Shown: positions 31,279 to 58,957 of the stretch, one piece after another
Layout of the letters: every line of letters begins with the position of its first letter
How positions within the stretch are numbered: the stretch's first letter is position 1
NCBI GenBank assembly: GCA_012441205.1
Contig: GCA_012441205.1_4705.1
Origin: a phage
Strand: one strand, 5' to 3'
Length of the DNA: 64,000 nt
Program-made: the position numbers and the translations under genes
The notes under the pieces: model-generated
Database searches by the model: none
The model's input: only the letters and a program-made list of their open reading frames with translations
What the model was told of the DNA's origin: nothing

Positions 31279-31344
31279 ATTAACACCTATTAAATAGGAA
31301 ACATCATATTAATAGGTTTAAAAGTTAAAAATGACAGAAAATGG

Positions 31345-39780: not shown

Positions 39781-41922
39781 ATGGGTATTCTTGTTCAAAA
39801 CGCCCTAATCACCAAACAGGCGTTTTTATTACCGGGCGATAGCAGCACGCTTAGTGCTGACATGATTAAAGCGAGACATACACCGTATTCCTACGATAAC
39901 GTCGATGATACCACCTTAGGCGGGAACTGGGTGCTTAACCCACCACCGCAATATACCAAATTTGCCGACATCAAGGAACGCCGACGTGCGGTTATGCCTG
40001 GATCAACGGGCATGGGCCGAGGCTATAGTGAAAGCATTAACAGCTTTAAAGAGGTCGTTACGTTACGATTCGGTAAACCTCGCTTTACAGGCGCAAGTAT
40101 CTTCTTTACTGATTTCTACGATGCCGATGTTGCCGTAACGGTTAAAACCGGTCGCGATCCCGGTATTCTTTATTACGCAGCCAAAGCGTATACCACCGTT
40201 CTTTCTTACCTCACACCTCTACCCTACTTGTATATGGTTGGACGTATCGGTCGATATTTCCTGGGTAAGCCTACCAGTCAATATTACTATCAAGTACCAA
40301 CCATGCACGTGTATTGGGCGTCTTTCCAAACGCTGGTAAACCAAACAGCGATAAACATGGGTCTTATCGCCGGTGCCGGTAAAGATAAAGGCTATGTGGA
40401 AGAAGGGGGTACCGTACTCCACCAATATTCAATCGGTGGTCAGAACGTTGAAGAATTCATCAACTACGCCTCTAAGACGCTACCGGGGATTTATAAGAAA
40501 GGTGGTGGGATCGATATCTACCAGATCGCAACACGACGTCAGCGCATACAGAACGCATGGGTACGTCGTATTCAATCCATGATGGAAAACGATTACTCGT
40601 CTTACGAGGAGTTCTGGAACGATCTTGATAAACGACTTGATAGCGGAGCATTTCCATCGGATGTAACCGGCCGTACGTTAACGCAGTATCTCGCCGACAC
40701 GCAGAAGTCTGCTGTTTACAGTGCGACAGCTGGTGATAATAAACAAACGATGGACGACCTTTTATTTGGAAGAGCCTCGTACACCAATAAAGATGCCGAT
40801 GCTAACTTCAATGTCTCAGCGGCTACCTCCGACGGCGGTACGTCAACACAGAGTCAGGGTACAACAGCCAATGTCGGTAATTCGACGTCAGGGACAACGC
40901 AGGCTTCAACAACAGCATCAACGGCTGGAGGCGCGAACGTACAGAGCAAAGGAATCGGTCAAACGAACGCAGCCGAAGAAGCTACGTTTCTTGATCTGAT
41001 GGATGCTGAACTGGCCGATGGTGCTCAGTTTATCAGTTTTCGAGTCGACTCTGTCACCAGTGTAACCGAAACGTTTTCAAACAGCGCTTCAGAAAGTTCA
41101 ATCGCACAGACGATGAATAGCCGTGCACAAGCGAACATCGAACGTCGTTTCACCCTCTCCGGTGGTAATACAGGTTGGGCTGTACTAGACGAAGCCATCA
41201 AAGCCGGTTCCGATCTCGTTAATGGTGCTATTTCCGGGATGGGCCTGGATGGTATTTTTGGTGCCTTCATGGGTTCCGGCTTCGCCGACATTCCGAAATT
41301 CTATTCCGGATCATCGGTAAGTCTTCCGCGTGCAGATCTGACGATGGAATTGCGTTCCTGGAGCGGGGACCGCTGGTCGATCTTTACGAACCTCATGGTA
41401 CCTCTTTTAGCGATCCTTGCAGGTGGTTTACCTCAGGCTACCGGTAAATCGTCCTACGGGATGCCGTTCATGTGTGAGTGTTATATTCCAGGTAAAGTCC
41501 AGATTAAAATGGGCCTTATCGATAATATCACTGTGACGCGCCATGTTGGAAACGTACCATCAACACGCGAGCGATTACCGTTGGGGATCGACGTCAGCTT
41601 CAGCGTTTATGACCTGTCGTCTATCGTCGCCATGCCGATCACAACGACGGCCGCATCGATCGCAAAATTGGATCCTCGTGGCTTCTTAAGCGATCTTCTT
41701 GCTGACGATACGCCGCTCAACAACTATCTTGCTGTATTATCAGCATTGACACTTACGGAACAAGTTTACATGATTCCGGATTTAAGTCGTCGCATGCATA
41801 AAACCATGGCTGATATCGATAGTTTCTGGAGCAAAGGTAATTTTGCTAGCTGGTTGTCTGACACCATGCCTGGCAGGATAGCATCAGGGCTGTTATGGAA
41901 ACGTACAGAACGGCCGTTCTGA
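39781..41922 (+). CDS. hypothetical protein, possibly virion structural (713 aa)
   Basis: Follows the giant gene on the same strand; contains a Ser/Thr/Gly-rich linker; no catalytic motif seen. Confidence 0.5.
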   Translation: MGILVQNALITKQAFLLPGDSSTLSADMIKARHTPYSYDNVDDTTLGGNWVLNPPPQYTKFADIKERRRAVMPGSTGMGRGYSESINSFKEVVTLRFGKPRFTGASIFFTDFYDADVAVTVKTGRDPGILYYAAKAYTTVLSYLTPLPYLYMVGRIGRYFLGKPTSQYYYQVPTMHVYWASFQTLVNQTAINMGLIAGAGKDKGYVEEGGTVLHQYSIGGQNVEEFINYASKTLPGIYKKGGGIDIYQIATRRQRIQNAWVRRIQSMMENDYSSYEEFWNDLDKRLDSGAFPSDVTGRTLTQYLADTQKSAVYSATAGDNKQTMDDLLFGRASYTNKDADANFNVSAATSDGGTSTQSQGTTANVGNSTSGTTQASTTASTAGGANVQSKGIGQTNAAEEATFLDLMDAELADGAQFISFRVDSVTSVTETFSNSASESSIAQTMNSRAQANIERRFTLSGGNTGWAVLDEAIKAGSDLVNGAISGMGLDGIFGAFMGSGFADIPKFYSGSSVSLPRADLTMELRSWSGDRWSIFTNLMVPLLAILAGGLPQATGKSSYGMPFMCECYIPGKVQIKMGLIDNITVTRHVGNVPSTRERLPLGIDVSFSVYDLSSIVAMPITTTAASIAKLDPRGFLSDLLADDTPLNNYLAVLSALTLTEQVYMIPDLSRRMHKTMADIDSFWSKGNFASWLSDTMPGRIASGLLWKRTERPF

Positions 41923-41939
41923 TATTCACTGCATAAACC

Positions 41940-41971
41940 CCCTCTCCCTTCCCTGCTGGGTTGGGAGAGGG
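41940..41971. terminator. hairpin terminator between convergent genes (conserved family)
   Basis: CCCTCTCCC-TTCCCTGCTGGGTT-GGGAGAGGG followed by ATTATGTTAACC; near-identical to the element at 54803-54834 with compensatory stem changes. Confidence 0.55.
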
Positions 41972-41977
41972 ATTATG

Positions 41978-43045
41978 TTAACCTAACGTCACCGTCGGTA
42001 AATCAGGATAAAGTTTCTTCAAGCCTGCCATCGTGGTGGTAGTTGTATAATTCTTACCCATCGCAGCAAGAGATGCGTATTTCCTACTGCGAGAGAAAAG
42101 AGAATAGAACCCACTGGATGTTTCCATCCACATCGTGAGGAGTTCTGCATCGTTACCGTGATAGTTCGTTTTACCCCATCCAGGTTTAAACGCATCGGCA
42201 AAATCAATTAAACGCGAGGCTTCAGCGTCGTATTCTTTAAGGGTAAGGTACGATGGAATGCGGTAGTTACGAAACAGTAACGTAATGAGTTCAGGGACAA
42301 CGCTACGGGCACGTTCAGCCGTGATAAGTTCGGTGATCACAGCAGCTGTACGGAAATCGCCGTTAAGACCAACGCTGCTTAACGATTCCGCTAAAGTGGT
42401 CGCCATCGCCACTTTATCCTCCGCTGACCCAGAGTCATACAGACTACGCACATCGATGTAGTTGCCTGCTAATGCGGCTTGACGAATCAACGATGTGACA
42501 ACTGTCCGGTTCGTCTTATAGTCGTTGTAACTGAATTCGGTTCGCGTTTTCCCTTGATCGTCGAGATACCGATCGACAATCGTTGAAAGTTTATAATACT
42601 CATCGCCCGACATCAGACTATCGAGAAGCTTAACGTTTCCATCTTTATCAATAAGCTTCCCTAACGCACCATTGGATTGCTGGTTAATGGTACTGTAAAT
42701 CTGGTCTTTTACTTGCGATAGAATGTTATCGGTTGACGATATATTCAGGCCAGTAACATCTTTGATCTTATTCATCAACGCGTTTTCATTCAGGGAGATT
42801 TTGCCTCCGCTGATATCGATGAAAGAATTAAGATCGCTTATGGAAATCAGGTTTCCTGTTAACGCCGATAATGTACTATTGATACTGTTCGTAATACTGC
42901 TGCGAAAACTGGTTAACGCATCCGCCGCTGAAACAGCGGTACCGCTAACCGCTTTAAGGAGCGTATCACGCCCTGTCGAAAAATCGCTGGTGATGGTTTT
43001 GATCTTGGACGTATCTATACTCGGCAGTTTGTCGTAAAGACTCAT
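41978..43045 (-). CDS. hypothetical protein (355 aa)
   Basis: ORF track starts at 43096; the ATG at 43045 (MSLYDKLP...) has AGGAGG 6 nt upstream and sits just after a terminator hairpin. Confidence 0.5.
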   Translation of the reverse strand: MSLYDKLPSIDTSKIKTITSDFSTGRDTLLKAVSGTAVSAADALTSFRSSITNSINSTLSALTGNLISISDLNSFIDISGGKISLNENALMNKIKDVTGLNISSTDNILSQVKDQIYSTINQQSNGALGKLIDKDGNVKLLDSLMSGDEYYKLSTIVDRYLDDQGKTRTEFSYNDYKTNRTVVTSLIRQAALAGNYIDVRSLYDSGSAEDKVAMATTLAESLSSVGLNGDFRTAAVITELITAERARSVVPELITLLFRNYRIPSYLTLKEYDAEASRLIDFADAFKPGWGKTNYHGNDAELLTMWMETSSGFYSLFSRSRKYASLAAMGKNYTTTTTMAGLKKLYPDLPTVTLG

Positions 43046-43083
43046 CACGTCCTCCTGAAAAAGAAAAAAGAAATACGGCATAA

Positions 43084-43111
43084 AGCCTACCCACACAATG
43101 GTGGGTAGGCT
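43084..43111 (-). terminator. intrinsic terminator
   Basis: 10-bp stem AGCCTACCCA / TGGGTAGGCT, followed on the minus strand by TTTATGCCGTATTTCTTTTTTC. Confidence 0.55.
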
Positions 43112-43127
43112 AAGATCAACATCGATG

Positions 43128-43640
43128 TTAAACTTCTTCGTTTTCTGAACCTAATGATTCAGCATCTGGATCGTCAACAGGAATGGTTGCATCAAAATAC
43201 CGTTTCGTATGCGTGGTTGTATATCCTACGCTATCTGTGATGGAAATCGTAAACGTGACTTCCCTTGCACGGATTAAGCGTAGTTTATTCATGAAGTTAC
43301 GGAACGGCATCGATCCCCGATTCAACTCCTTAATGACGTTTCCCCGAATACTGGAAATGTCTTTATTCGTTTTATCAGGGTGTCGTTTCTTCACATCACG
43401 CATATGTCGGGTAATATACGAATTGAGCTGATTTGCGCCGATCCCTCTCTCCGTATAAATCTGCAACAGGAACTCCGTAAGGAAATCCTGTCTACCCGTA
43501 GGCGTCCAGAAATTGTTACCGTGATTGTAGTTAGTCGCTCGTCCTCGATTGCTTTGAGGATTTTCATCATCGCTTTCATCACGACGCTTAAGCGGATTAA
43601 TGCGTGCGCGGAAAGAGACTTCATTATATTTATTTGTCAT
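43128..43640 (-). CDS. hypothetical protein (about 170 aa)
   Basis: The ORF-track start at 43685 is a TTG; the ATG at 43640 forms an ATGA overlap with the upstream gene's stop. Confidence 0.45.
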   Translation of the reverse strand: MTNKYNEVSFRARINPLKRRDESDDENPQSNRGRATNYNHGNNFWTPTGRQDFLTEFLLQIYTERGIGANQLNSYITRHMRDVKKRHPDKTNKDISSIRGNVIKELNRGSMPFRNFMNKLRLIRAREVTFTISITDSVGYTTTHTKRYFDATIPVDDPDAESLGSENEEV

Positions 43641-44152
43641 AATACACCAGTGTACTGACTGAGTGCGAAGGTTAGGAGTTCGCAACAGTCTCTCGCTAGT
43701 TTCCTTGTTTTGCGTAATCCATAAGCCGCATCCAAATCGTCACGTTCCGCCAGCGCGTCTAACCACGTCGCAAGTATGCGTCCATACTCGATAACGTCAC
43801 GCATGAGAACGTCGAACCGGATAACACGACCATCGGCATCAGCAAGCCAACGATTGAACGTGATTTGTGGTGCTAGTATTGCATATGTTCTCTCCTCTAA
43901 TGCGATTATGTTTATGTTGCCTTCGTTATCGAACGCTTGATGCCAACGGCGAAGGTCAAGCATCAACGACTCAGCGTCCATATACCACAACGGTAAATAC
44001 GTTTTACGTGCAACGCGTATATCGTAGATGTTGTGAACCCAGGACGTTGTTTTGTAAAGCAACAAGAGTTCGTTTAACCGTTGCCTATCATCTTGAAACG
44101 TCTTCCTTTTATAACGTTGGAACGCACGCCTCAAGAAAAAGCGATGTAACAT
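43637..44152 (-). CDS. hypothetical protein (171 aa)
   Basis: ORF; the CTATATTAC motif lies about 95 nt upstream. Confidence 0.45.
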   Translation of the reverse strand: MLHRFFLRRAFQRYKRKTFQDDRQRLNELLLLYKTTSWVHNIYDIRVARKTYLPLWYMDAESLMLDLRRWHQAFDNEGNINIIALEERTYAILAPQITFNRWLADADGRVIRFDVLMRDVIEYGRILATWLDALAERDDLDAAYGLRKTRKLARDCCELLTFALSQYTGVL

Positions 44153-44241
44153 GGCATCACCTATGTATCATTCTTGCAGGCATCAATGAAGCCATCACAA
44201 GAAGGTAACGTTATACGTCGCCTTCATGACTGTCATCATGA

Positions 44242-44254
44242 AGGTAATATAGTC
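44242..44254 (-). promoter_or_regulatory. putative phage promoter motif (GGACTATATTACC on minus strand)
   Basis: Plus-strand GGTAATATAGTCC in a divergent intergenic region; same motif as at 19556 and 57368. Confidence 0.4.
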
Positions 44255-44285
44255 CTGTTATTTTTTTCAATACGGAGAATGTAAA

Positions 44286-44915
44286 ATGAGCGAATATGGT
44301 GTTGCCCCCGTAGATGATGAACCGCAAGAAGCACCTGATAAATTCGAGGTCCGTCTTGACGAAACCCGTAATATCCGCCAACGATTTATTCAACGCCTTG
44401 AAATGCTGTTAGATAGCGAATTCAAAGATTTCGAGCTTAATCCTGGCGCTGATAACAAAGCCATCGTCGACGTCGAAAACGTCGACCGAATAGGTAAGCT
44501 GTTGTTGAAATCGTTGGGCGATAACGACAAAGTCGACTTAACGTTGAAACGTATCAGTGCCGACCAGGCCATGAATGACAGCGCACTGAAAACAGCACAA
44601 GCCCTAACCGAAACCATGCTGCGCCGCTTAGGTCAGATGGATCAACATCCTCTCGCAGCAGGGGCTGTTTATGAAGGCGAAGTCGTGAAGCCAGTCACGC
44701 CTGAAGAACGTGATCGTCGACTTGGTTTTGCGTCATTGGAAGAGTTCGATAGCAAGGAGTTCTCACCAGGCGTTCTCATCCAGGGACGTGTCGAAGAAAC
44801 CAGCGATGCTTTCTATGCTAGAATGGCTCAACTGACGGCGTCGGTTCGTGAGGAGGTATCTCAGAAGATGGCTGCAGATCATCAGTCTTCGGAGGCGTCA
44901 CACGAGGAGGAATAA
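44286..44915 (+). CDS. hypothetical acidic protein (209 aa)
   Basis: ATG with GGAGAA RBS; acidic C-terminal tail; its 3' end overlaps the convergent gene 44818..45606 by about 98 nt. Confidence 0.5.
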   Translation: MSEYGVAPVDDEPQEAPDKFEVRLDETRNIRQRFIQRLEMLLDSEFKDFELNPGADNKAIVDVENVDRIGKLLLKSLGDNDKVDLTLKRISADQAMNDSALKTAQALTETMLRRLGQMDQHPLAAGAVYEGEVVKPVTPEERDRRLGFASLEEFDSKEFSPGVLIQGRVEETSDAFYARMAQLTASVREEVSQKMAADHQSSEASHEEE

Positions 44916-45606
44916 AATAACTGAACCATTTTATTCCAAAGAACCGCATGAACATCACAGGCGCGTTAGAAAGTTCGATTGCTTCGTAAAGTTTGTCATA
45001 AGCCAGATCGGAATCAGGGATGGTTTCACTGATTCGTCTGGCTACAACCAATACGTTACAAATCGGATTGTCTTCTAACAGCATCTGATTGGGGAGGTGC
45101 CAGCGTTTGAAATCGTAAAAGAACATCGCATTATACGTCTTACGGATTTCTGACGGATGCAGTGTGGCCGGATGACGGTAAATAATCTCAACGCTATCTT
45201 GCGCGCCGAGGTATTGCTGGATGCCTTCTTTTAACGCAATTGCAGCATCTCCCACAAATTCAAACGGGTACGTATTCACATGAACCGAAAAATCCGGTGC
45301 GGCAATCCCTGTCAAGCGGTCTTTCATGTAGTCCGCAACCACGTAACATAATCGCCACATCAACTCCGTCGGAATACATTTATCAAGAATGGTTTCATCG
45401 ATATTTGCCAACGCACCCTTAAACTCTTCGTAAGTGTAAGTAACACCCGCCTGCTTTTCCGGCTCCAGGTTATAGGGTCGGTAATGCCATTTCTTCCCCC
45501 ACTTTCTGATAGCCTCAGGATCCAACGTTGTTGCTACCGCCATTTCGATATCAAGCAGCGCCTCGAGTTCTACGTACACCGTCACTAACGCCGCATTTCC
45601 AGTCAT
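44818..45606 (-). CDS. hypothetical protein (262 aa)
   Basis: Long ORF with a Pro-rich C-terminal tail lying in the overlap with the convergent plus-strand gene. Confidence 0.45.
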   Translation of the reverse strand: MTGNAALVTVYVELEALLDIEMAVATTLDPEAIRKWGKKWHYRPYNLEPEKQAGVTYTYEEFKGALANIDETILDKCIPTELMWRLCYVVADYMKDRLTGIAAPDFSVHVNTYPFEFVGDAAIALKEGIQQYLGAQDSVEIIYRHPATLHPSEIRKTYNAMFFYDFKRWHLPNQMLLEDNPICNVLVVARRISETIPDSDLAYDKLYEAIELSNAPVMFMRFFGIKWFSYFIPPRVTPPKTDDLQPSSEIPPHEPTPSVEPF

Positions 45607-46310
45607 CGTTGCTCTCCAGCTTCACCGGTTAACATCTGCATATCGGGAGACGTTTTAATTTTCTTCTCGTACTCTTTTGTTTGTTTGAATACCAACTCAC
45701 CGATTTCTTCCAATTCTTCAACGGTGACGGTATGCAAATAAAGCAACGGAATAATCCAGGTATTCGCACGAAGCATATCCCGAATATCATCAATGGTGGG
45801 TAATTCCGTAAAGAACTGTTCGTCTACCGCGAATAAATCCCGGGCGATACCATCCACCAGTTTATGATTGCTTTCATGGATCCATGCAAAACTTCCAGCA
45901 AGATGATCGATAAGCATATCGATGTCATCGACAGTTGAGAACACTGTACGCCGAACGTGCGTTGTGAGGTCCATCGTAAAACCCATTAACGAAGGGGTTT
46001 CCTCAGAACGGAGTTCACGCCAAAGACGGATCATGTTTTCAGGGATAAACAAATCATGGATGAACGTCACACTGAATTTCGTAACCCAGTCACGAATTGT
46101 TGCCCCTTTGGAATATTGTTGCGGTGGGGAATACAAATACACCCAGCGTTTCGTGTACGCGATAACTTCCTTTCGCATCGCCGCATCTAAAACAAGCACG
46201 TAACGATCGGAAGCAAGCTCTTCTAATAAAAGCTCGAACGCAGTATCACTCTCTGGGGAGAACGATCGTTTTATTTCTGCGATACGTCGTGATAACCGAC
46301 CACGTAACAT
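45603..46310 (-). CDS. hypothetical protein (235 aa)
   Basis: ORF, start/stop overlap with neighbours. Confidence 0.5.
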   Translation of the reverse strand: MLRGRLSRRIAEIKRSFSPESDTAFELLLEELASDRYVLVLDAAMRKEVIAYTKRWVYLYSPPQQYSKGATIRDWVTKFSVTFIHDLFIPENMIRLWRELRSEETPSLMGFTMDLTTHVRRTVFSTVDDIDMLIDHLAGSFAWIHESNHKLVDGIARDLFAVDEQFFTELPTIDDIRDMLRANTWIIPLLYLHTVTVEELEEIGELVFKQTKEYEKKIKTSPDMQMLTGEAGEQR

Positions 46311-46312
46311 AA

Positions 46313-46987
46313 TTAGCCCTCATCAAGGTTATTCTGGAGATGCATCGCGGTGAGGATAACGCCAACCGCCGAAACCGATTTTGCCTTGCTGTCTTCAGGG
46401 AGCTGCTCCAAGCTTACGGTACCTGTTTCTAACAGCATGCGGTTCATCGCGTTGAACTTCTTATCGTCACCACCACGAGCCTGCATCAGCTCTCGGTTCA
46501 CGTTCGGCATCGACCGTCCTAACGTCGCTTGCATTTCCGGCTGGCTCCAAGTGGAACCTTTACTATCACCCGTCGGCTGATTGGTGAGCTGGTCCTTGGT
46601 GTTGTTGTTTTTCGGAATCGAAATTTTAGCACTCAACGTTTCGGCTTGTCGGCGGTTTGGAATCAGGTACAATCTGGTTGGGCGGTCACGAAGCACCAAT
46701 TGCCCTGTTTTCTGGTCGGTGAGATAAATGCGTTGGAAGAAAGGGAAACCGTATTTCTTACCGACTTCCAACGCACGTTTTATCGTCACCTCGTTTTTGT
46801 TCATGTTGGGTACCCAGATGGGTAGAATCTCTTTCTTATCCCGACATAAACGCATATAGGCATCAAACGTCTCATCATCGATTTCAGCAAAACGTTTTTT
46901 GTAAATAGCGTAAGTCGGGCTCGATTCACCCACCAGGTCTTTGATATACCCAAGAATGAATTTTTCTGCTGCAGCGCGGTTGGACAT
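46313..46987 (-). CDS. hypothetical protein (224 aa)
   Basis: ORF in minus-strand block. Confidence 0.5.
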   Translation of the reverse strand: MSNRAAAEKFILGYIKDLVGESSPTYAIYKKRFAEIDDETFDAYMRLCRDKKEILPIWVPNMNKNEVTIKRALEVGKKYGFPFFQRIYLTDQKTGQLVLRDRPTRLYLIPNRRQAETLSAKISIPKNNNTKDQLTNQPTGDSKGSTWSQPEMQATLGRSMPNVNRELMQARGGDDKKFNAMNRMLLETGTVSLEQLPEDSKAKSVSAVGVILTAMHLQNNLDEG

Positions 46988-46996
46988 AAACGTCTC

Positions 46997-47338
46997 CTAT
47001 TGTCGTGTCTGTTGCGGAAATACCCGAAACACCTGGACAATGATGTTCTTGTCCTCGCGGTTGGCGATGTCGATCATGTGTTTTGTTCCAGGACTTTTGA
47101 AATCCCAGAACGCAATTAAATGCGTAATGACATCGCCCATCCACTCATTGCGTCTGAATCCAGCACCTTTACGATAAGGACCATCCCAATCGGCAGGAAA
47201 CGTGGTGTATTTAAACCCGTAATCCTTCGCGTAGCGGCGCACATGCAAATCAGCGCCTGAATGCGCACCGCCAGCAATGAGATGAACTTTGTCGTGAGGA
47301 AGGTTGTGTAACATCTGGTTCATACGCTTTTCGAACAA
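46997..47338 (-). CDS. hypothetical protein, possible SLOG/DprA-like Rossmann-fold domain
   Basis: 113 aa; LIAGGAHSGADLH resembles the GGAxGxD glycine-rich loop of SLOG/LOG/DprA-type proteins. Weak, motif-only call. Confidence 0.3.
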   Translation of the reverse strand: MFEKRMNQMLHNLPHDKVHLIAGGAHSGADLHVRRYAKDYGFKYTTFPADWDGPYRKGAGFRRNEWMGDVITHLIAFWDFKSPGTKHMIDIANREDKNIIVQVFRVFPQQTRQ

Positions 47339-47391
47339 GGGATAATCATCCCAGTAGCGTGATCCCGATACCCCTACACGATAGGGTTCGC

Positions 47392-47712
47392 TTATCTTCC
47401 ACCGCGCAATGACTTTACGTTGCGTGCGATAAAGGGTGCAACGTAATCACGGAAATTATGGATCCATCCTTTAATGGGTTGGTTGTCTAGTAAGCACTCA
47501 CGTACCGAAAACGTACTTACTTCTAATACACCAAACTGTAGTCGCCAATAGCGATTGATTTCAGCTTGGGTATGTTCTAATGTCATGTACTCAGGAACAC
47601 GAGCCAATAGGTCGTGTTTAAATTGCTCAGCAATCGCTGGTTGATGTGACGCAATTGTCTGCGTGATAACATCAATCAGTTCATGTGCATGCTTGATAGC
47701 AGGTGCGGTCAT
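47392..47712 (-). CDS. hypothetical protein (106 aa)
   Basis: ORF downstream of the RecA-like gene. Confidence 0.4.
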   Translation of the reverse strand: MTAPAIKHAHELIDVITQTIASHQPAIAEQFKHDLLARVPEYMTLEHTQAEINRYWRLQFGVLEVSTFSVRECLLDNQPIKGWIHNFRDYVAPFIARNVKSLRGGR

Positions 47713-47724
47713 TTATTTAGCCTT

Positions 47725-49215
47725 TTATTTTTTACTCGGACGATTCAATGCGGGTACCGGGTTCTTTGGTTGCTTTGTCTTTTCATCCATCCAGTACGGG
47801 AAGTACTCACCAGTACGCATACGCAATAAGTCCATTGTGGACAGGAACGGCAGCGGGTTAGGATCGTCCAGATACGTCCAGTAACCACGCGTGTTTAACA
47901 ATACATCCCAATCGAAACCTTTTGCTTTAAGATCGTCGTACAGTTCCTGTGGGGTGCAATACAGCTGTGGGTTTTCGTAAACCTCTTGACGCCAGAGATT
48001 ATGCATTTGACACAGCTCCGACGTAATTTCCAGAGCACGCTGTAAATACTCATCCTCTTCGCAGAGAGAACGAATGGTCGTACGCTGCAACGCAACATCC
48101 GGATAAATATCCAAATATACCGTTGAAGCACCATCAGCTGACTTACCACCTGACGCATGCATACCCCAACCACGCATCCAATCTTTATCACGCAGGTAGT
48201 GGTATTCCGTTAATGATGGTTTAACCCCTTCGCTCTGACTAACCACAATCGGGAACGGTAAGCCGGTGGGTCCGTTTTTAGCGCGCATGTTAAAGACTTG
48301 AATCAACTGCAGATCGGTATCCCCGATAAGGTTGTCACCAGGCCCACGCGGATAAAGGACGCGTTTATCCGCGTTCTGAAGAATCGTCAGTTTATCGATT
48401 TTCCAGAGGTTATTCGTATAAAACGTGAAGCGTTCCGGGACGTTCTTAAACTTCTCATCGCCCTTAAACCCTTTCAGTTTTCGTACCGGTTGCTGTCCCG
48501 GCATACCACCAACGTTTACACCGTCACCAAGGTGGGCGGTCATGGTAATGTAGATACCCGCCGACGCTGTGAGTACTGGCATCTGTGATAGAATCTGGCT
48601 TTTCGCAGCTGCTGAACGCATCGCTTCAGCATTCAGTTTTGCGCCACCCGCGGTTTCTTTATCGAACAGTGCATCAACGGCATCGATTGGTAATCCAGAG
48701 AAACTGTCGATGAGTACAACGGTCGGCAACCACCAGGTATAGTTCTCACCGTGTTTATTAATAAACGGAACGGCTTTGCGTTGAGATTTATCTTTGACCT
48801 TGTCGTCACGGAATTTCTTAATCGCATCAAACCAAATGTTACCGCTCATCTGAACAGCATCGGTGATAAACACACGTTCTTCTTCGAAAAGATCGACACC
48901 TGCGATATTAGACATGTTCATCGCAAGCGTTAAGATACGTGTTGTCGTTAACGACATTTCTGTGTCGTAAACGCTACTATTGCTGTTTGCGTAACGATCG
49001 ATAACGCGTAACAAGCGAAACATTATGAACGTGGTTTTGTTCATGTTGCCGCGAGCGCCTGCGCCCTCAACAAGCATCATGCCGCCGTTACAAATGCTTT
49101 CACCGTGTTTACCGACATAGTACCGACCACCAGATGTGGGAATATCCATTAAGCAACCAATGTTGAGATTAAAACGCATCTCTTCACCAGGAGAAAGGTA
49201 CTTATTAAGATTCAT
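47725..49215 (-). CDS. RecA/UvsX-like ATPase with deviant P-loop (putative recombinase)
   Basis: 496 aa; NGGMMLVEGAGARGNMNKTTFIMF aligns to the RecA P-loop region (GRIVEIYGPESSGKTTLTL) and TVVLIDSFSGL to the RecA Walker B (VIVVDSVAAL). The P-loop reads GNMNKTT rather than SSGKTT. Confidence 0.45.
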   Translation of the reverse strand: MNLNKYLSPGEEMRFNLNIGCLMDIPTSGGRYYVGKHGESICNGGMMLVEGAGARGNMNKTTFIMFRLLRVIDRYANSNSSVYDTEMSLTTTRILTLAMNMSNIAGVDLFEEERVFITDAVQMSGNIWFDAIKKFRDDKVKDKSQRKAVPFINKHGENYTWWLPTVVLIDSFSGLPIDAVDALFDKETAGGAKLNAEAMRSAAAKSQILSQMPVLTASAGIYITMTAHLGDGVNVGGMPGQQPVRKLKGFKGDEKFKNVPERFTFYTNNLWKIDKLTILQNADKRVLYPRGPGDNLIGDTDLQLIQVFNMRAKNGPTGLPFPIVVSQSEGVKPSLTEYHYLRDKDWMRGWGMHASGGKSADGASTVYLDIYPDVALQRTTIRSLCEEDEYLQRALEITSELCQMHNLWRQEVYENPQLYCTPQELYDDLKAKGFDWDVLLNTRGYWTYLDDPNPLPFLSTMDLLRMRTGEYFPYWMDEKTKQPKNPVPALNRPSKK

Positions 49216-49314
49216 TGGGTAAAGACTCCTTCGATTCTTCGACTAATTCTTAGTGTTCAGAGAATAACTATTTTTTAGTTAAGACTGACAACCGCTATTT
49301 CCACGAGGACAATC

Positions 49315-50157
49315 ATGCATAAATTTACCATTCCTGAAGACCCGATTACACTGCAGACCCTTTGGGATTCACATCGTGCTTTATCAATGGAAGGCTTTGC
49401 GCAAGACTTCGCTTCACTTACCGCAGTAACGAATCTTCGCAGTATGTTTACCAACGGTAAGAAGTTTGTTACCGATTGGCTTAAGAAACGTGATGTGACG
49501 GTTTATCCTAAAGTTTTCGATGACCTCGATACGATTTTTAGCAACAACGCTTACAGCGATCTCATTGGGTATCGTGCTTTTATTCCGAATGGTTTAAATG
49601 CGCCGATGTCAGATTATGTTGTTGCTTTAACTCAGAGCCTGGATAGCGTGATTGGCACCATCCTACCTGATTTGGATAAGCTGACCGTAACGTGCGCTAA
49701 AGCCGTCAACGACGTTAACTTCCGTCGTAGTAGTGGTATGGCTCAAACGCTACCTAAAAACGATCCAGAGAACGTTCTAGAGACGTTACGTGCGATGTTC
49801 AAACAAGGGACGGTAACACAGACCACTGTAGGCCGTGCATATAAGAACGAAGATGATATTCGTCAGATCGGAAAAGATCTGGATGCTTCCCGTATCCGTG
49901 CGCTTGACGTTAATCCTAAAGACGTGAAGAAGGCAATCGAACGTTTCATGGAGGTAGCTGACCGTTTAACCGAAATCCTGGTTCAAGACTACAATGAAGG
50001 TGCGGTGAGCAACGCGATGATTCGCGATATTAGTGACGCTATCTACCAAACAGCCAAGCAGGCTGAACTGTATGCGTTTCTCGTGAACGCTTTGGCTGAG
50101 GCGATCATCGCATATAACGACACTTGGGACGCCGTTAAAAAGAACGCGAAAAAATAA
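49315..50157 (+). CDS. hypothetical protein (280 aa)
   Basis: ATG at 49315; followed by a terminator hairpin. Confidence 0.5.
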   Translation: MHKFTIPEDPITLQTLWDSHRALSMEGFAQDFASLTAVTNLRSMFTNGKKFVTDWLKKRDVTVYPKVFDDLDTIFSNNAYSDLIGYRAFIPNGLNAPMSDYVVALTQSLDSVIGTILPDLDKLTVTCAKAVNDVNFRRSSGMAQTLPKNDPENVLETLRAMFKQGTVTQTTVGRAYKNEDDIRQIGKDLDASRIRALDVNPKDVKKAIERFMEVADRLTEILVQDYNEGAVSNAMIRDISDAIYQTAKQAELYAFLVNALAEAIIAYNDTWDAVKKNAKK

Positions 50158-50165
50158 CATAATAA

Positions 50166-50201
50166 CCCACCCTACTACCCCGTTAAGGGCGGTAGGGTGG
50201 G
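50166..50201. terminator. bidirectional hairpin terminator between convergent genes
   Basis: CCCACCCTAC...GTAGGGTGGG (10-bp outer stem plus inner pairing), followed by GATAAGGTTTATTTGCCG on the plus strand and by TTATTATGTTATTTTTTCG on the minus strand. Confidence 0.5.
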
Positions 50202-50208
50202 ATAAGGT

Positions 50209-50640
50209 TTATTTGCCGTATAGTTGTACCACTCGTTGTGTCGTAGGAACGCAGACTCTTACCAGAAGCTTTTTAATCTCCTGACGAATCGTTGCTTTAT
50301 CATCATAATAAAGCCATGGCGGAACGCGTTGCATTATGCACTGCACGGCTTCATCGTAGTTCGTCGTCTCATTAAGTAACGTCTCACTATCCAGATCTTT
50401 CCATGCAGTAATACCAAGTCGCGCAGCAAACATCAACGCTGAAACCGACTCAGCTATCTCCAATCGCTCATTCATATCCGCAAGACCTTTTAGCATGATG
50501 TAATTATCGTCATGCTGGTGCAGGGTACCATACAAACTTCCGAAGAGAAGTATGCGTTTAGCTTTTGCGGTTAAGAGGAACGATAGGAGAGCGTGTTTCA
50601 ACGGTTGTTTCTCACGTTCTACCTGTTCGACCATCACCAT
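50209..50640 (-). CDS. hypothetical protein (143 aa)
   Basis: ORF immediately downstream of the RNase H gene. Confidence 0.45.
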   Translation of the reverse strand: MVMVEQVEREKQPLKHALLSFLLTAKAKRILLFGSLYGTLHQHDDNYIMLKGLADMNERLEIAESVSALMFAARLGITAWKDLDSETLLNETTNYDEAVQCIMQRVPPWLYYDDKATIRQEIKKLLVRVCVPTTQRVVQLYGK

Positions 50641-50643
50641 TGA

Positions 50644-52170
50644 TTACTCCAACACATAACGTGGGTTACTGTATATGTTAGCCCATATACCAACGTCGTC
50701 TCCCGACTCAATAATCACAGCGAAACGAAACGCAACATCAGACTCGCGATATGTTACCGCGTACGCTTTCGTTTCCGGTGATGCTAAATAGCTCAAGTTC
50801 AGACGTTGAGGCAGGTCTAACCCCAAGGACATGGTACAAGACGTAACGCCCTGCTTATCGGGGGTCAGTCTGTAATTCACGTCCACCTTCAAGCTTTTCG
50901 TAACCTGCGTAATCGCACTATGCACTTTGGTAACCGTTTTGCCTTTCTTATCCTTTTCTGTTTCGAAAAGAACGTCGGTAATTTCGGTTACGACTAGACG
51001 CGGTGTGGATTCGCGGTTAGCGTCAAGCCATTCATCCAGTAACGTCTTTAAGAAGTTCAAGGAATCAATCGCACGCCAAGCAAGGTTAGGCGGGTTGCAC
51101 GCTTCCATTAAAATGGCTGTGTTGGATCCACCTAGCGGAAGATGCACGCTCTTACCGAGGCCTGTCGGACGCATCGTAAGATCGCACTCACCCTCAAGAA
51201 TATCGCGATGATATTGACGATGATGAAGGTTATCCGTGTATGCGATATACACTGACTCCGTTGTCCCATGCTCTAATACCCGAGATGCATGCGTACGCAT
51301 AATCTCAACAGCATCATCCGGCTTGCTTAGATAGATAACACTGTACGCACTATCGCTAATCCTTTTCCCTAACTCAAGACGTCCCTTGTTGTCTTTATCG
51401 GTGTTACCACCGAAATAGATGTAGCGGCCATCTTTCGCACGCTCTTGCTGCTGGTTGGTGGTAAAGTAGCAGCGTGAGAACGTAAAGAACGGGCTTATTT
51501 CCGGTTCGGGGCTCCAATACCCCTTAGCCGGAAGTTCGCGGCGTATTTGGGTTCTTACAGCCCAGTCCTGGTTTTGTGATAGATATGTTCCACGCGTTGC
51601 CAACATATCCGCACGTTCGTTACCAACATTGCCCTCATGTCCAGGAACATAGCGCAGCGAAATATCGATAGCGTCGCGCTTCGCATCCCTTATCGCGCTA
51701 TCGAGTTTCCGCCACCGTTCCGCATTCATTAACGGTTTATTGTCGGATTTAACCCAGTTGTTCTCTCGCCAATTAGCAAGATGGTTGGTGGCACCTACAA
51801 CAACATATTGGCTGTCCGACAACAGCTGGATCCGTTTTGCCCCCTTTGCTTTTCCAAGTTCAATCGCACGTATTGCGGCATCCAACTCAGCCTGATTGTT
51901 CGTTACATTGAAACCCAAAGCCTCTAACTCATCCACGTATTCCTTGGGTTCGACCAGCACAGCGTCTTTAGGAAAGTCGAGTTTAGGGTCAACATAACCG
52001 TATTGCGTTGGTTTGGGCTTCCCACTTTTTGAAGGTTCCAAGGTGCCTTTTATTTCTTTCACCATATCGTAGGTGTAGCCATGCACGCCATAGCCACCAT
52101 ACCCACTCGATGTTGGACGGGATCCTCCATCACAGTAGAAAACGGCACCAAGCTCAGTATTTCCTGCCAT
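50644..52170 (-). CDS. RNase HI domain protein fused to an uncharacterised ~330-aa C-terminal domain
   Basis: Start set to the ATG at 52170 (TGAGG RBS). The N-terminal about 180 aa match RNase HI: FYCDGGS (catalytic Asp), TNNQAELDAAIRAIE (catalytic Glu), LLSDSQYVV (catalytic Asp), YVPGHEGNVGNERADMLA (His/Asp), with a roughly 45-aa insertion after the first strand. Confidence 0.8.
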   Translation of the reverse strand: MAGNTELGAVFYCDGGSRPTSSGYGGYGVHGYTYDMVKEIKGTLEPSKSGKPKPTQYGYVDPKLDFPKDAVLVEPKEYVDELEALGFNVTNNQAELDAAIRAIELGKAKGAKRIQLLSDSQYVVVGATNHLANWRENNWVKSDNKPLMNAERWRKLDSAIRDAKRDAIDISLRYVPGHEGNVGNERADMLATRGTYLSQNQDWAVRTQIRRELPAKGYWSPEPEISPFFTFSRCYFTTNQQQERAKDGRYIYFGGNTDKDNKGRLELGKRISDSAYSVIYLSKPDDAVEIMRTHASRVLEHGTTESVYIAYTDNLHHRQYHRDILEGECDLTMRPTGLGKSVHLPLGGSNTAILMEACNPPNLAWRAIDSLNFLKTLLDEWLDANRESTPRLVVTEITDVLFETEKDKKGKTVTKVHSAITQVTKSLKVDVNYRLTPDKQGVTSCTMSLGLDLPQRLNLSYLASPETKAYAVTYRESDVAFRFAVIIESGDDVGIWANIYSNPRYVLE

Positions 52171-52220
52171 TGTAAACCTCATTAATCATTGTCCGTATGA
52201 TAGCCCAAAGTTGTACGGTA

Positions 52221-52772
52221 TTACCGATTACCGTCAGTTGACGTTGGTTGATTGCGATCGATTTTCATTGACCGTAATTTTCCACCATTAGTTACACACT
52301 GATTGCGCTGTTCGACGGAGGCCAGACTGTTACAGACATAATAAGTATCGATAAAACGCTCAACGCGTTCTTGAAACTTCCTCCCGGCAACTTGCTCTTT
52401 TTCAAAAGTTCGTAATGCACGATCGACCTCACCTTGGAGAATCCGGTTCTGTTCAACCATACTGTCTATTAAACGGCCTCGCACTTCGTTCGATGTGTAG
52501 AGTTGATGAATCAGTTCTCGGTTGGTGTCTCGCGCATAACGCAATGTTGCATTTTCCTGACGTAAACTACTCACGTCAGCCATCAAGGTAATGATTTTTT
52601 CGCCAGCGAATAACGTCACGATACCCAATACGATGAAAAAGCCCGTAATCAAGAATATCGAGGACTGTCGAGCTCCATCTCGACGATAGCGTGTGGGCGG
52701 TCGCTTACTTCGCCGAAACAACTCGCGAAGAAAAGGGAAAAGCCAGGGCAACGCCTTGAGTGTAGTAAACAT
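52221..52772 (-). CDS. hypothetical membrane protein with coiled-coil region
   Basis: ORF track starts at 52916; the ATG at 52772 gives a 183-aa protein with one predicted transmembrane helix (IFLITGFFIVLGIVTLFAG) and a heptad-like C-terminal region. Confidence 0.4.
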   Translation of the reverse strand: MFTTLKALPWLFPFLRELFRRSKRPPTRYRRDGARQSSIFLITGFFIVLGIVTLFAGEKIITLMADVSSLRQENATLRYARDTNRELIHQLYTSNEVRGRLIDSMVEQNRILQGEVDRALRTFEKEQVAGRKFQERVERFIDTYYVCNSLASVEQRNQCVTNGGKLRSMKIDRNQPTSTDGNR

Positions 52773-52826
52773 GCGTGTGTCCTTGATAGTATGAAATTTC
52801 CAATACAACTTAACCGAGGACGTCGA

Positions 52827-54167
52827 ATGATTAGTATTTTTGGTTTTTATACGTACAAAGGGTACGCTAATAACCACCCAAAAACCACGGCGAAATTCGG
52901 TGAGTTCAGTCAGCACAGTGCTACGTTCAGTCGCGAAATCGGCATCTATACCAACACGGCGTACGCACGTACGACCTTATTAGTGTTGAATGCCGAAAAC
53001 GAAGCTGGTGAAGCACAAACGCTGAATGACGACACCGCAGGCCGCATTCTTCAGGTTGGTCAATGGTTGCTGGAAAAAGCCTCATCAGGCGAAATCCAGG
53101 ATGACCGAGACCAGGTTATCGGCTACCTAAAAGACGACTTCACAACGTATCTGGATTCTATCGACATCCCAACACCCACCACCGATGGTACCGTCTATCT
53201 ACCGGCGTGGATCAGTTTCAAGATAACCGCCACCGGCGATGTCGTCAAGATTTGGTTGTCTGATAGCGTATTCCAAAGTCAATATCCAAAATACGAATAT
53301 GAAGTCGTTCCCCCTGTTCCTAAGGATCAGTTAGATACCTTCTTCGAAGATCTGGCAACATTGAAGAAACTGGTTGACAGTCGAAGCAGCGAGAAACTGA
53401 CCGAAGAAATCAACGAGGTGCGCGACCAATTCCCAGACACACAATTGTGGACGAAAACATATAAAGCGTACGATTACACCGACGATTCGAAATATATTAA
53501 TACCGATTGGACGGTGATTATCTACGGTGCAGCAGGTAACAACATTGATAATATCAAGGAGTTCCTGCAAAACTGGATTCTTAGCAATAGCACGCACGGA
53601 CGTCCAGACTGGGAAATCGTTCTGCCGGATCTTTTTATTCCGACGGAACACATCTTCATTCCAATCTGGAACCGCCACAGTGCGCCAGAAATGACCAATC
53701 AGGCACGTATCTATAGTCCTATATTCGATGATTCGTTGATGGATACCTACCTGAAAAACTTTGCTGATGGTTACGGCGAAACCGCCGAAGTCCGTAAATC
53801 GCTTCAAGCGGTGCCGACGTTGTGGCGCTCGATCGGTTTCTTAAGCGTTGGTAACTCACGTAACCGAGACGGTAAACTTAAGTTCTACGATCGTTGGCCG
53901 CAATACGCGCTCATCAGCACAACCAGCATCGATATTAACCGTATCGATGATGCGACACGTGAATTCATCACGTTCACTTACGAAATGCTGAAACTGGCAG
54001 AATCGCTGACCGAAGACGACCCGGTACCGTTGGGTTATAGTCGTGTTACGCGTGGTAGCAATAGCTTCTTAGCGAAAAGCCACAACGATGTTCAGTATCT
54101 CTTCTTAACAAAAGAAGCGTTCCTGAAGAAAATGCCGGATGAAGCCGACACGCCTGTTGGAGGTTGA
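52827..54167 (+). CDS. hypothetical protein (446 aa)
   Basis: ATG at 52827 with GAGGA RBS 6 nt upstream; stop overlaps the RBS/start of the next gene. Confidence 0.5.
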   Translation: MISIFGFYTYKGYANNHPKTTAKFGEFSQHSATFSREIGIYTNTAYARTTLLVLNAENEAGEAQTLNDDTAGRILQVGQWLLEKASSGEIQDDRDQVIGYLKDDFTTYLDSIDIPTPTTDGTVYLPAWISFKITATGDVVKIWLSDSVFQSQYPKYEYEVVPPVPKDQLDTFFEDLATLKKLVDSRSSEKLTEEINEVRDQFPDTQLWTKTYKAYDYTDDSKYINTDWTVIIYGAAGNNIDNIKEFLQNWILSNSTHGRPDWEIVLPDLFIPTEHIFIPIWNRHSAPEMTNQARIYSPIFDDSLMDTYLKNFADGYGETAEVRKSLQAVPTLWRSIGFLSVGNSRNRDGKLKFYDRWPQYALISTTSIDINRIDDATREFITFTYEMLKLAESLTEDDPVPLGYSRVTRGSNSFLAKSHNDVQYLFLTKEAFLKKMPDEADTPVGG

Positions 54168-54169
54168 TT

Positions 54170-54796
54170 ATGGCTGTAACACGCATGACGCCAAGTCCCG
54201 GTGCGGTCGGGGTATTCACAGTATCAGCGCCGTTTACCGTTGGTGCGTCAACGCTATATACCGTTACAGCGTTGCGAAGATTCAGCGAAGTCATCGGTAG
54301 TGGAATCGATCTATTTACGGAACTGTACGAACCGTTATCAATAGACAAATCCACATTCGAAGCGCATCTCGAAGCGAATGCTTATCTCGTCACGTTGCAA
54401 CCGGATTACGGTGCACCCGTACTGGTACCTGATACGTATATCACGTCGTACCCAAAGAACGATTCATTGCGGTATCGTCGCATTATTCTGGGTATCGATT
54501 TCGGGCCTCTTCCTCCCGGTCTTGACCTTTCGTATTTAACAACGATATTGAAAGGTAAGGCCAGTGATATTCTTGGTGTCGAACCTGAAGTTAAAACGAT
54601 GGAAATCACTCTCGATGATACCGTTACTCAGGAACAACATCAGATAAACGAAGCCCGTCGTCAGGCCGCGATAAAAGAGCGAGATACCATATACGCACGT
54701 TGTGAAACGCAAGAGAAGCAGATAACGGCTTTACTTGCAACCCAAAAGCAACTTATCAAATTGCTTCAAGACGCCGGTATCAATCCGACACCTTAA
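54170..54796 (+). CDS. hypothetical protein (208 aa)
   Basis: ATG at 54170 with GGAGG 8 nt upstream (ORF track starts at a TTG at 54164); translationally coupled to the upstream gene. Confidence 0.5.
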   Translation: MAVTRMTPSPGAVGVFTVSAPFTVGASTLYTVTALRRFSEVIGSGIDLFTELYEPLSIDKSTFEAHLEANAYLVTLQPDYGAPVLVPDTYITSYPKNDSLRYRRIILGIDFGPLPPGLDLSYLTTILKGKASDILGVEPEVKTMEITLDDTVTQEQHQINEARRQAAIKERDTIYARCETQEKQITALLATQKQLIKLLQDAGINPTP

Positions 54797-54802
54797 CATA
54801 TT

Positions 54803-54834
54803 CCCTCCTCCTTCCCTGTTGGGTTGGAGGAGGG
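54803..54834. terminator. hairpin terminator (conserved family)
   Basis: CCCTCCTCC-TTCCCTGTTGGGTT-GGAGGAGGG followed by TTATGCTGTC. Confidence 0.55.
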
Positions 54835-54848
54835 TTATGCTGTCAAGC

Positions 54849-54864
54849 AAAAAAAAAAAAAAAA
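54849..54864. repeat. 16-nt poly(A)/poly(T) homopolymer tract
   Basis: A16 on the plus strand between two hairpins in a convergent intergenic region; reads as T16 downstream of the minus-strand gene ending at 54910. Confidence 0.8.
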
Positions 54865-54875
54865 TGATAGTCACA

Positions 54876-54897
54876 GGCTCTCCAATGAAGGAGAGCC
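54876..54897 (-). terminator. hairpin after minus-strand gene 54910..55611
   Basis: GGCTCTCC-AATGAA-GGAGAGCC; on the minus strand it is followed about 11 nt later by the T16 tract. Confidence 0.45.
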
Positions 54898-54909
54898 GTG
54901 ACCGTCAGT

Positions 54910-55611
54910 TTAAGATGCAGATAATCTCGCGTACTTCTGGCGAACATGGTTCTTACGGCGAACTTCGTCGTCCTCGTCGCGCCATTCGAGGTAAGCAACG
55001 AATCGACGTAACTGCGCCGCCGTCATCGTTGACGAGCGGTCTTCTACGTCTAGAACAACGTAACGAACATCACCAACGCCATCGCAATCAACGTAACTGA
55101 ATACCAAAAGGCCATCGCCGTACTCAACGATGGTAACTTCGAATCGTTTATCGAACAAATAAAACAGTTCCGATTCAATGATCATCGGAATGACGCATAA
55201 ATCAGCACGATTGAGGATTTCCATCATCACCCGTAACGCGCGAGGAGTATGGCGAGCGAACTGGTCGTTAAAACGTTGTTTCATCGCTTGTTCCACGCCA
55301 TCTGTTTTTGTTCCAAACCACGGACGTACTACAGATTTCGGTGGTGTAAGACGAAAGCGATATGCTTGTATAAACAACAGAATATCAGCGACGTTAGGAA
55401 ATTCTTCCTGGTCTTCGTATATCTTGCGGATAATATCCGGAATCGTAACCATCAAGTATTTCTTATCGCCTCCCACTTTCTCGAGATTAGCAATATGTCC
55501 TTCTACCACAGGCTGGTAAACGAAATTATACCAATGACGGTATCTTTCAGTACGTTGGTAGTTTGGGATAAAATTAAGAATAATACTCACTGCGCGTTTT
55601 AATGGGTTCAT
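54910..55611 (-). CDS. hypothetical protein (233 aa)
   Basis: ATG at 55611 with AGAAGGA RBS; last gene of a four-gene minus-strand operon. Confidence 0.5.
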   Translation of the reverse strand: MNPLKRAVSIILNFIPNYQRTERYRHWYNFVYQPVVEGHIANLEKVGGDKKYLMVTIPDIIRKIYEDQEEFPNVADILLFIQAYRFRLTPPKSVVRPWFGTKTDGVEQAMKQRFNDQFARHTPRALRVMMEILNRADLCVIPMIIESELFYLFDKRFEVTIVEYGDGLLVFSYVDCDGVGDVRYVVLDVEDRSSTMTAAQLRRFVAYLEWRDEDDEVRRKNHVRQKYARLSAS

Positions 55612-55625
55612 CGGAAGGATCCTTC

Positions 55626-56039: not shown

Positions 56040-56050
56040 AACGACCTCAC

Positions 56051-56578: not shown

Positions 56579-56679
56579 TGTCATCTCCCCTACATACGCA
56601 TCTTGAAGATCGGTTAAAAACAACAAAAGAAAAAACGATATAAAGCAAGGTCCTCTGATATCAGAGGACCTTGGATCAA

Positions 56680-57336: not shown

Positions 57337-57367
57337 GATTGAAATCTCGCTGGCTTACTTCACTTAA

Positions 57368-57378
57368 GTAATATAGCC
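57368..57378 (-). promoter_or_regulatory. putative phage promoter motif (GGCTATATTAC on minus strand)
   Basis: Plus-strand GTAATATAGCC, about 30 nt upstream of the ATG at 57336. Confidence 0.4.
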
Positions 57379-57486
57379 GTGAAAAATGTTGGATTAAGTT
57401 AAATACCGCAACCGCAGCTAATTTTATAGGCTTTTAGCCTAAACCAATCATCTTCGGAATCATCATCTTTGAAACAGGAATCTATC

Positions 57487-58308: not shown

Positions 58309-58314
58309 TTATCG

Positions 58315-58953: not shown

Positions 58954-58957
58954 AAAC

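Follow-up and report, generated by a model that had tools for sequence, protein, structure and literature searches.

The 64,000-nt stretch of phage DNA analyzed here, which we call the window, contains four copies of a ~38-nt element that very likely serve a Goslar-like chimallivirus as early promoters, recognized by the injected virion RNA polymerase (vRNAP) and directing transcription from a conserved G. The original prediction had proposed a recurring minus-strand word, CTATATTAC, as a candidate phage promoter, and a promoter role is indeed in line with the location, orientation, genome-wide enrichment, and downstream gene content of the element. The length given there for the motif, 9–13 nt, has to be replaced by the ~38 nt of the actual element. 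Promoters of this class are already well described for phiKZ, 201phi2-1, phiR1-37, and AR9, so that the Goslar-like element is a further member of the class and not a new kind of element. New here are the extended consensus, the genome-wide list of sites, the predicted start nucleotides, and the near-identity of the chimallin promoters of phiKZ and Goslar.

The window belongs to a close relative of phage Goslar

The window aligns over its full length with Escherichia phage vB_EcoM_Goslar at 96–97% identity, and Goslar was the sole match in a megablast search with window positions 40000–48000 (97.9% identity). Goslar, the genome of which comprises 237,307 bp, is a nucleus-forming jumbo phage of E. 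coli that belongs to the genus Goslarvirus (Chimalliviridae). Positions 1–54864 of the window correspond to Goslar 182379–237307 and positions 54810–64000 to Goslar 1–9141; because the alignment wraps from the end of the Goslar record to its start, the arbitrary ends of that record lie inside the window. The record begins and ends with the same 55 bases, of which the window has a single copy across the junction (54810–54864), indicating that the record ends arose as an artefact of assembly or permutation. Directly after this segment come a terminator-type hairpin and ~17 consecutive A.

Two further local differences were observed. A segment of ~0.5 kb (window 60357–60886), for which the Goslar counterpart in the gp009 region measures 482 bp, has no megablast match to Goslar and is locally replaced or highly diverged. 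In addition, the vRNAP genes gp207 and gp205 are separated in the Goslar annotation by a group I intron (211817–212245) and an ORF resembling a homing endonuclease, and around window positions ~29190–31278 (minus strand) the Goslar-mapped genes 29805–31278 and 31325–32820 differ in their reading frame ends, which implies indels there.

Genome-wide tests were run on Goslar, rebuilt from matched loci plus 2,444 bases, with valid start and stop codons in all 247 annotated coding sequences. Intergenic DNA makes up 7.06% of this genome, 216 of the 247 genes are on the minus strand, and the GC content of Goslar-type genomes is 46.5%. The literature searched yielded neither a promoter or transcriptome analysis of Goslar or its relatives nor, for Goslar or the window phage, mapped 5' ends of transcripts, data on expression timing, or in vitro assays of transcription.

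A recurrent intergenic word is the core of a 38-nt element

The word CTATATTAC occurs three times in the window as an exact match, always on the minus strand, compared with 0.42 copies expected, and none of 100 dinucleotide shuffles reached three copies:

57368–57376, minus strand, 32–39 nt upstream of the start codon at 57336
44244–44252, minus strand, 92–99 nt upstream of the start codon at 44152
19557–19565, minus strand, 124–131 nt upstream of the start codon at 19433

The original claim that each copy precedes the first gene of a minus-strand block does not extend to the site at 19557, which lies 4 nt past the stop codon of a co-directional gene (19569–20369) and hence not at the head of a block.

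Across the whole Goslar genome, the word is far from being as common inside genes as upstream of them, the pattern that had been named as grounds for rejecting it: all six copies of CTATATTAC are intergenic and co-oriented with the downstream gene (P=1.2e-7). The octamer within it, TATATTAC, is intergenic in 8 of 10 copies (P=2.4e-8), and the degenerate form TAYATTAC in 12 of 23, against 1.6 expected (P=1e-8). The genome-wide motif search that had been suggested as a check points the same way. In an unbiased 8-mer screen of 138 oriented Goslar upstream regions against coding sequence, which made no use of the originally reported word, TATATTAC ranked second, behind T8 only (8 observed, 0.21 expected).

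Alignment of the intergenic Goslar copies identified CTATATTAC as the −10-like core of an element of ~38 nt, in which an A/T-rich block, TTTCACGRC, TAYATTAC, six unspecified nucleotides, and a G follow one another. With the conserved downstream G numbered +1, the parts of the element are:

about −35 to −24, A/T-rich block in one of two forms, TTAATCCAACA and TATTGAAAAAAA; A−34 and A−29 invariant
−23 to −15, TTTCACGRC block
−14 to −7, TAYATTAC, seven of eight positions invariant across 13 sites and Y the sole variable one
six-nucleotide spacer after the octamer, YTWNRT, with invariant T at −5 and −1
+1, invariant G; the next nucleotide is A in 12 of 13 sites

The information content of the element totals 47.9 bits. 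A search of Goslar with the 38-column matrix returned 13 sites at 29–50 bits, followed by single sites at 20.7 and 17.2 bits, with everything else at or below 8.5 bits; the maximum over five genome equivalents of Markov sequence was 15.7 bits. When the sites were left out of the matrix in turn, none of them ranked below 15th among 474,000 positions. The 13 sites all share the minus strand, and 12 are intergenic (P=1.9e-13), the remaining one (Goslar 49732) being located within the first 40 nt of an annotated ORF of 62 codons. The third position of the octamer is C in five of the 13 sites (TACATTAC). At the level of sequence, the motif, its placement, its enrichment, and, as detailed below for the chimallin genes, its conservation across the family are all evident.

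The constraints on placement also bear on the idea that the element is the binding site of a phage DNA-binding protein, such as a repressor or a replication or genome-organizing factor, with no promoter role. A length of 38 nt and the inverted repeats flanking several copies would suit such a site. In contrast, the element invariably points in the direction of the downstream gene, the distance to the start codon is constrained (39–166 nt in 12 of the 13 Goslar sites), and the element is found upstream of chimallin family-wide, with a start site mapped there in phiKZ. We consider a pure protein-binding role extremely improbable.

Four predicted early promoters and their transcription units

Four of the 13 strong Goslar sites have counterparts in the window, and we read these as early promoters:

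P57375, 57359–57396, minus strand, predicted early promoter; core 57368–57375, predicted start G 57361, 47.8 bits; TAATCCAACATTTTTCACGGC-TATATTAC-TTAAGT-GAA
P44251, 44235–44272, minus strand, predicted early promoter at the anchor site of the original prediction; core 44244–44251, predicted start G 44237, 41.8 bits; TATTGAAAAAAATAACAGGAC-TATATTAC-CTTCAT-GAT
P19564, 19548–19585, minus strand, predicted early promoter; core 19557–19564, predicted start G 19550, 40.0 bits; TATTGGAAAAAAGTTGAGGTC-TATATTAC-CTAACT-GAT
P5261, 5245–5282, minus strand, predicted early promoter and the weakest of the four; core 5254–5261, predicted start G 5247, 29.0 bits; AAATGGAGATTAAAATAAACC-TACATTAC-CTTCCT-GAT

P57375 is located in a divergent intergenic region, with 39 nt from the start of the core to the ATG at 57336, and all 38 of its nucleotides are the same as Goslar 2551–2588. 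The upstream half of P19564 overlaps the 3' end of the co-directional gene 19569–20369. The predicted starts of P57375, P44251, P19564, and P5261 correspond to Goslar 2553, 226681, 201930, and 187625, respectively. P5261 corresponds to one of two weaker variants reported originally, the one near 5257–5267; it is a true member of the family, retaining 17.9 bits in the leave-one-out analysis against the null maximum of 15.7. The other variant, at 14763–14774, scores −31 bits and was rejected.

P44251, P19564, and P5261 likewise show 0/38 differences from Goslar, and P44251 is unchanged in three further Goslar-like genomes. Over the four 38-nt cores, no substitution separates the window from Goslar, compared with 3.9 expected at the intergenic rate of 2.6% (P=0.02), but conservation within the Goslar group is a test of little power because the relatives are 96–99% identical; around P44251, for instance, three IMG/VR relatives and Goslar are 99% identical. 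At orthologous sites in the IMG/VR relatives, TATATTAC alternates with TACATTAC and GGC with GAC, in support of the Y and the R of the consensus. An exact-pattern scan of IMG/VR with TTTCACGRCTAYATTACYT recovered Goslar, two close relatives, and two unrelated contigs. The matches in the latter two were judged to be due to chance, given that these contigs have no blastn similarity to Goslar and that the matches lie inside ORFs and score below 15 bits.

Each candidate promoter precedes one to three small genes, with a hairpin after three of the four predicted units:

56646–57336, minus strand, P57375 unit; one orphan gene, 56680–57336 (218 aa); terminator-like hairpin 56646–56673 with a 12-bp stem
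43075–44152, minus strand, P44251 unit; two small genes, 43637–44152 and 43128–43640 (170 aa each)
17897–19433, minus strand, P19564 unit; three small genes, 18954–19433, 18436–18849, and 17897–18436; no clear end
3666–5195, minus strand, P5261 unit; three orphan genes, 4671–5195, 4075–4674, and 3737–4090; terminator-like hairpin 3666–3691

The P44251 unit ends in a hairpin at 43084–43111 (−20.4 kcal/mol) followed by TTATGCCGT (43075–43083), a terminator motif of the phiKZ type. Among ten proteins tested, nine lack a Pfam domain, and all PHROG matches are to families of unknown function. The sole Pfam match is a DUF488-N3a domain (E=5.6e-9) in the 137-aa product of the middle gene of the P19564 unit (18436–18849, minus strand), the other genes of which match unnamed PHROGs or nothing; neither the P57375 unit gene (56680–57336) nor the P5261 unit genes have any Pfam or PHROG match. 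Early host-takeover regions of jumbo phages usually hold small orphan genes of this kind.

The window also encodes four of the five vRNAP subunits, which are gp78, gp196, gp205, gp207, and gp210 according to Goslar virion proteomics:

22273–32820, minus strand, vRNAP subunit genes, with homologues of Goslar gp210 (22273–22983), gp207 (24842–29188), and gp205 (31325–32820)
46313–46987, homologue of the fourth vRNAP subunit, gp196

The element precedes chimallin across the family

The Goslar site at 172978 is 80 nt upstream of gp246, which encodes chimallin, the nuclear shell protein. The next gene downstream, gp247, is annotated as an RNA polymerase subunit and is absent from the published list of five virion subunits; we infer that it encodes a subunit of the non-virion RNA polymerase. 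A further RNA polymerase subunit gene that is off the published virion list, gp165, has a weaker site upstream of it, at Goslar 151634 (20.7 bits). Both sites are outside the window.

The Goslar chimallin promoter, TATTGAAAAAAATTTCAGGGTTATATTACCTAGGTGAA, is near-identical over ~35 nt to the region upstream of the phiKZ chimallin gene PHIKZ054, ATGAAAAAAATTTGAGATTTATATTACTAAATTGAA, and P44251 and P19564 in the window belong to this type as well. We compared the upstream regions of the chimallin genes from four other genera, the proteins of which are only ~23–24% identical to that of Goslar. In each of the four regions, the top site found with the matrix built from Goslar alone is the following element:

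phiKZ, ATGAAAAAAATTTGAGATT-TATATTAC-TAAATT-GAA, 28.9 bits
PhiPA3, ATTGAAAAAAATCTCACATC-TATATCAC-AGGTGT-G, 12.5 bits
Erwinia RAY, TTCAAAAAAATTACAAGTC-TATATTAC-GTATGT-G, 28.0 bits
Klebsiella Eowyn, AAATTTACATAAACG-TATATTAC-TTAGGT-GAT, 20.7 bits

The score of the phiKZ site bears out the resemblance to the phiKZ early consensus that was proposed when the motif was first reported. According to published dRNA-seq work on phiKZ, PHIKZ054 has a primary start site associated with the early motif, as well as a middle promoter.

Perfect palindromes were observed in the chimallin 5' leaders of three phages, ~30–55 nt past the predicted start:

phiKZ, CTAAGTACTTAG and TTCTTGATCAAGAA, positions 455–490 of the extracted locus
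PhiPA3, ACTTGATCAAGT, positions ~965–985 of the extracted locus
Goslar, AATGACGTCATT, Goslar 172900–172950

Comparison with known early promoters and probable assignment to the virion polymerase

The early (vRNAP) promoters of phiKZ number 28–32 and combine an AT-rich extended −10 box with T-rich DNA ahead of −19 (Ceyssens 2014; Wicke 2021; Putzeys 2024). The Goslar element has in common with them the octamer TATATTAC, an upstream A-tract followed by TTT, the T-G 6 nt after the octamer, and the position upstream of chimallin in both phages. The two differ in that most Goslar copies have TTAATCCAACA in place of the A-tract, together with the G/C-containing TTTCACGRC block, that Goslar tolerates C at position 3 of the octamer (TACATTAC), and that only 13–14 copies are present per genome; moreover, start sites are mapped in phiKZ, whereas those of Goslar are predicted from sequence. 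Given the difference in the number of sites, part of the Goslar early promoters may have a different form. With a genomic GC content as high as that of the Goslar-type phages, the element is more conspicuous against its surroundings than its phiKZ equivalent.

Similar relationships hold for other phages. The early promoters of the Pseudomonas phage 201phi2-1, mapped by ONT-cappable-seq in 2024, are highly conserved in the −10, −20, and −30 regions, which match the three blocks of the Goslar element in a comparison by description and not base by base. The early consensus of AR9 is AAATATATATTAT-(6N)-G+1, with a −10-like core, TATATTAT, that is near-identical to TATATTAC and the same 6-nt spacer to the G start; AR9 differs in not being a chimallivirus, in having uracil-containing DNA, and in the lack of the TTTCACGRC block. 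In both phiKZ and phiR1-37, the mapped early start is 6 nt downstream of the consensus, and the invariant T-G 6–7 nt after TAYATTAC in Goslar fits this spacing rule of phiKZ, phiR1-37, and AR9. Reviews describe vRNAP promoters as AT-rich elements of ~10 nt centered at −10 that are bioinformatically detectable in every such phage.

Modeled on the mapped early starts of phiKZ, phiR1-37, and AR9, the vRNAP would bind the extended duplex element without a host sigma factor, melt the AT-rich octamer, and initiate at the conserved G located seven bases after TAYATTAC. Each promoter would thereby drive one to three small genes that form a short unit closed by a hairpin. Elsewhere in the genome, the same promoter would serve chimallin and the adjacent RNA polymerase subunit gene, as would suit the first wave of expression. 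Inferred in this scheme are which polymerase acts, at which nucleotide it starts, and that it does so early in infection.

The resemblance of TATATT to TATAAT makes host sigma-70 promoters the obvious alternative, with TATATT serving as the −10 hexamer for E. coli RNA polymerase, as in many smaller phages. TATATT and TACATT agree with TATAAT at its key positions, T−12, A−11, and T−7, and TTAATC is present 16 nt upstream in some copies. Nevertheless, a consensus scan flagged no correctly oriented match at any of the four window sites; in the A-tract copies, TTGAAA is just 13 nt from the hexamer, whereas sigma-70 needs 16–18 nt; and the invariant A−8, C−7, T−5, T−1, and G+1 are not sigma-70 features. 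Compared with shuffled sequence, sigma-70-like matches are depleted in the window (15 against 34 ± 5.8 at positions 1–20000 and 25 against 34.4 ± 5.9 at 40001–60000), which suggests avoidance of host-type promoters. Furthermore, the same element is kept in phages of Pseudomonas, Erwinia, and Klebsiella, making four host genera in all, and published work shows phiKZ infection to be rifampicin-insensitive and independent of the host RNA polymerase, with early transcription carried out in a vesicle by the injected polymerase. Recognition by sigma-70 is therefore very unlikely.

Promoters of a later class in the same phage, read by the non-virion RNA polymerase and starting ~20 nt further downstream as the phiKZ middle promoters do, are a second alternative. 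The phiKZ middle motif, AAanTTACc, is centered near −24 and shares TTAC with the element, so that the assignment to the early class rests on chimallin orthology and spacing rather than on timing. A later class would be compatible with the TTACC that the phiKZ middle motif AAAATTACC and TATATTACC have in common and with the presence of both an early and a middle promoter at PHIKZ054. Yet the element fits the phiKZ site with its A-tract and the extended −10 box described for early promoters, it also fits the AR9 early consensus TATATTAT-N6-G, and the spacing between the octamer and the invariant T−1/G+1 is exactly 6 nt. The pattern AANNTTACY, modeled on the phiKZ middle motif, was rejected as an enriched feature of Goslar intergenic DNA (10 copies against 7.2 expected), and none of its copies is at a TAYATTAC site. 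We regard a later class as improbable and early transcription by the vRNAP as the best explanation of the four window elements.

Hairpins at the predicted 5' ends

At P44251, a 9-bp inverted repeat, CCTTCATGA-N6-TCATGAAGG, spans the predicted start (window 44215–44243, minus strand). A stem begins at nucleotide +1 in seven of the 13 predicted Goslar-type early transcripts, and the segments from +1 to +45 have a mean folding z-score of −1.79 compared with −0.91 for control upstream segments (P=0.025). Relatives have different stems at the same leader position. The leader hairpins are at:

window 44215–44243, minus strand
Goslar 15067, 49732, 86705, 113797, 160791, 166069, and 172978

In a broader and rather doubtful picture, Goslar-type phages would use for early transcription an unusually long duplex promoter of ~38 nt, contacted at −34, −29, −14 to −7, −5, −1, and +1, that perhaps yields mRNAs with the first nucleotide paired in a 5' hairpin, and, separately, terminators doubling as TATG late promoters. 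In that case, a 5'-terminal hairpin might shield early mRNAs or tag them for export out of the injection vesicle.

Terminator motif, TATG, and plus-strand words

The 8-mer screen also returned TTTATGCC, TATGCCGT, and TTATGCCG, which directly follow strong G/C-rich hairpins. The conserved terminator motif of phiKZ, BCCYCCCCHWWDGGGRRGGBYTTATKYYGT, accounts for this second enriched word family (TTTATGCCGT after G/C-rich hairpins) and for part of the TATG signal. Unlike the CTATATTAC element, it is a terminator, located at the end of one of the predicted early units and not at its start. Roughly 25 copies with a strong hairpin (about −14 kcal/mol or stronger) are present in Goslar, nearly all of them intergenic. 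In the window, the copies of the word are at 1411(−), 20466(−), 24813(−), 43083(−), 54835(+), and 58339(+), as parts of hairpins followed by TTATKYYGT with folding energies of −14 to −26 kcal/mol:

43075–43111, minus strand
20458–20500, minus strand
24805–24840, minus strand
54801–54843, plus strand
58305–58347, plus strand
1403–1440, minus strand

The GCCGT conserved after the T-tract is unneeded for intrinsic termination, and the conserved sequence includes the late-promoter word TATG; a combined role as terminator and late promoter is conceivable.

Late genes of phiKZ are preceded by promoters of the form T−3 A T G+1 that overlap the start site, and TATG had been reported upstream of structural-looking genes in the window (14790, 52790, and 58600). 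Across Goslar upstream regions genome-wide, with terminator-type copies masked, TATG shows no overall enrichment (45 against 41.3 ± 5.7). What stands of the claim is a weak positional peak, in that 13 sites fall at −40 to −31 relative to the start codon where ~5.3 would be expected, with window examples at 52790, 58603, and 5291; the word is too short to call single sites. The distance of the peak matches the typical phiKZ leader length of 31–40 nt, which lends weak support to TATG-type late promoters; these are possible but unproven.

The plus-strand word TTTATTACG, put forward as a counterpart upstream of plus-strand genes, is present at 5301 and 14711, but negative matrix scores (−8 and −15 bits, respectively) led us to reject it as a family member. 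The copy at 14711 is no more than the flank of a minus-strand TATGCCGTAATAAAGG element, read as its reverse complement. All of the secondary features reported originally exist in the sequence, but most of them do not exceed chance. In Goslar, 15 of the 18 copies of TTTATTAC are inside genes.

Implications

The element provides short, host-independent promoter parts for engineering, and the list of promoters flags the small orphan genes that are likeliest to act in host takeover. Goslar is an emerging model for the study of the phage nucleus and the early infection vesicle, and the sites identified here amount to a testable map of the first transcription units in a nucleus-forming phage of E. 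coli, with four units in the window and 13–14 in the genome. The near-identity of the chimallin promoters of phiKZ and Goslar, despite the extensive divergence of the chimallins themselves, indicates that promoter recognition by the vRNAP is conserved across the family.
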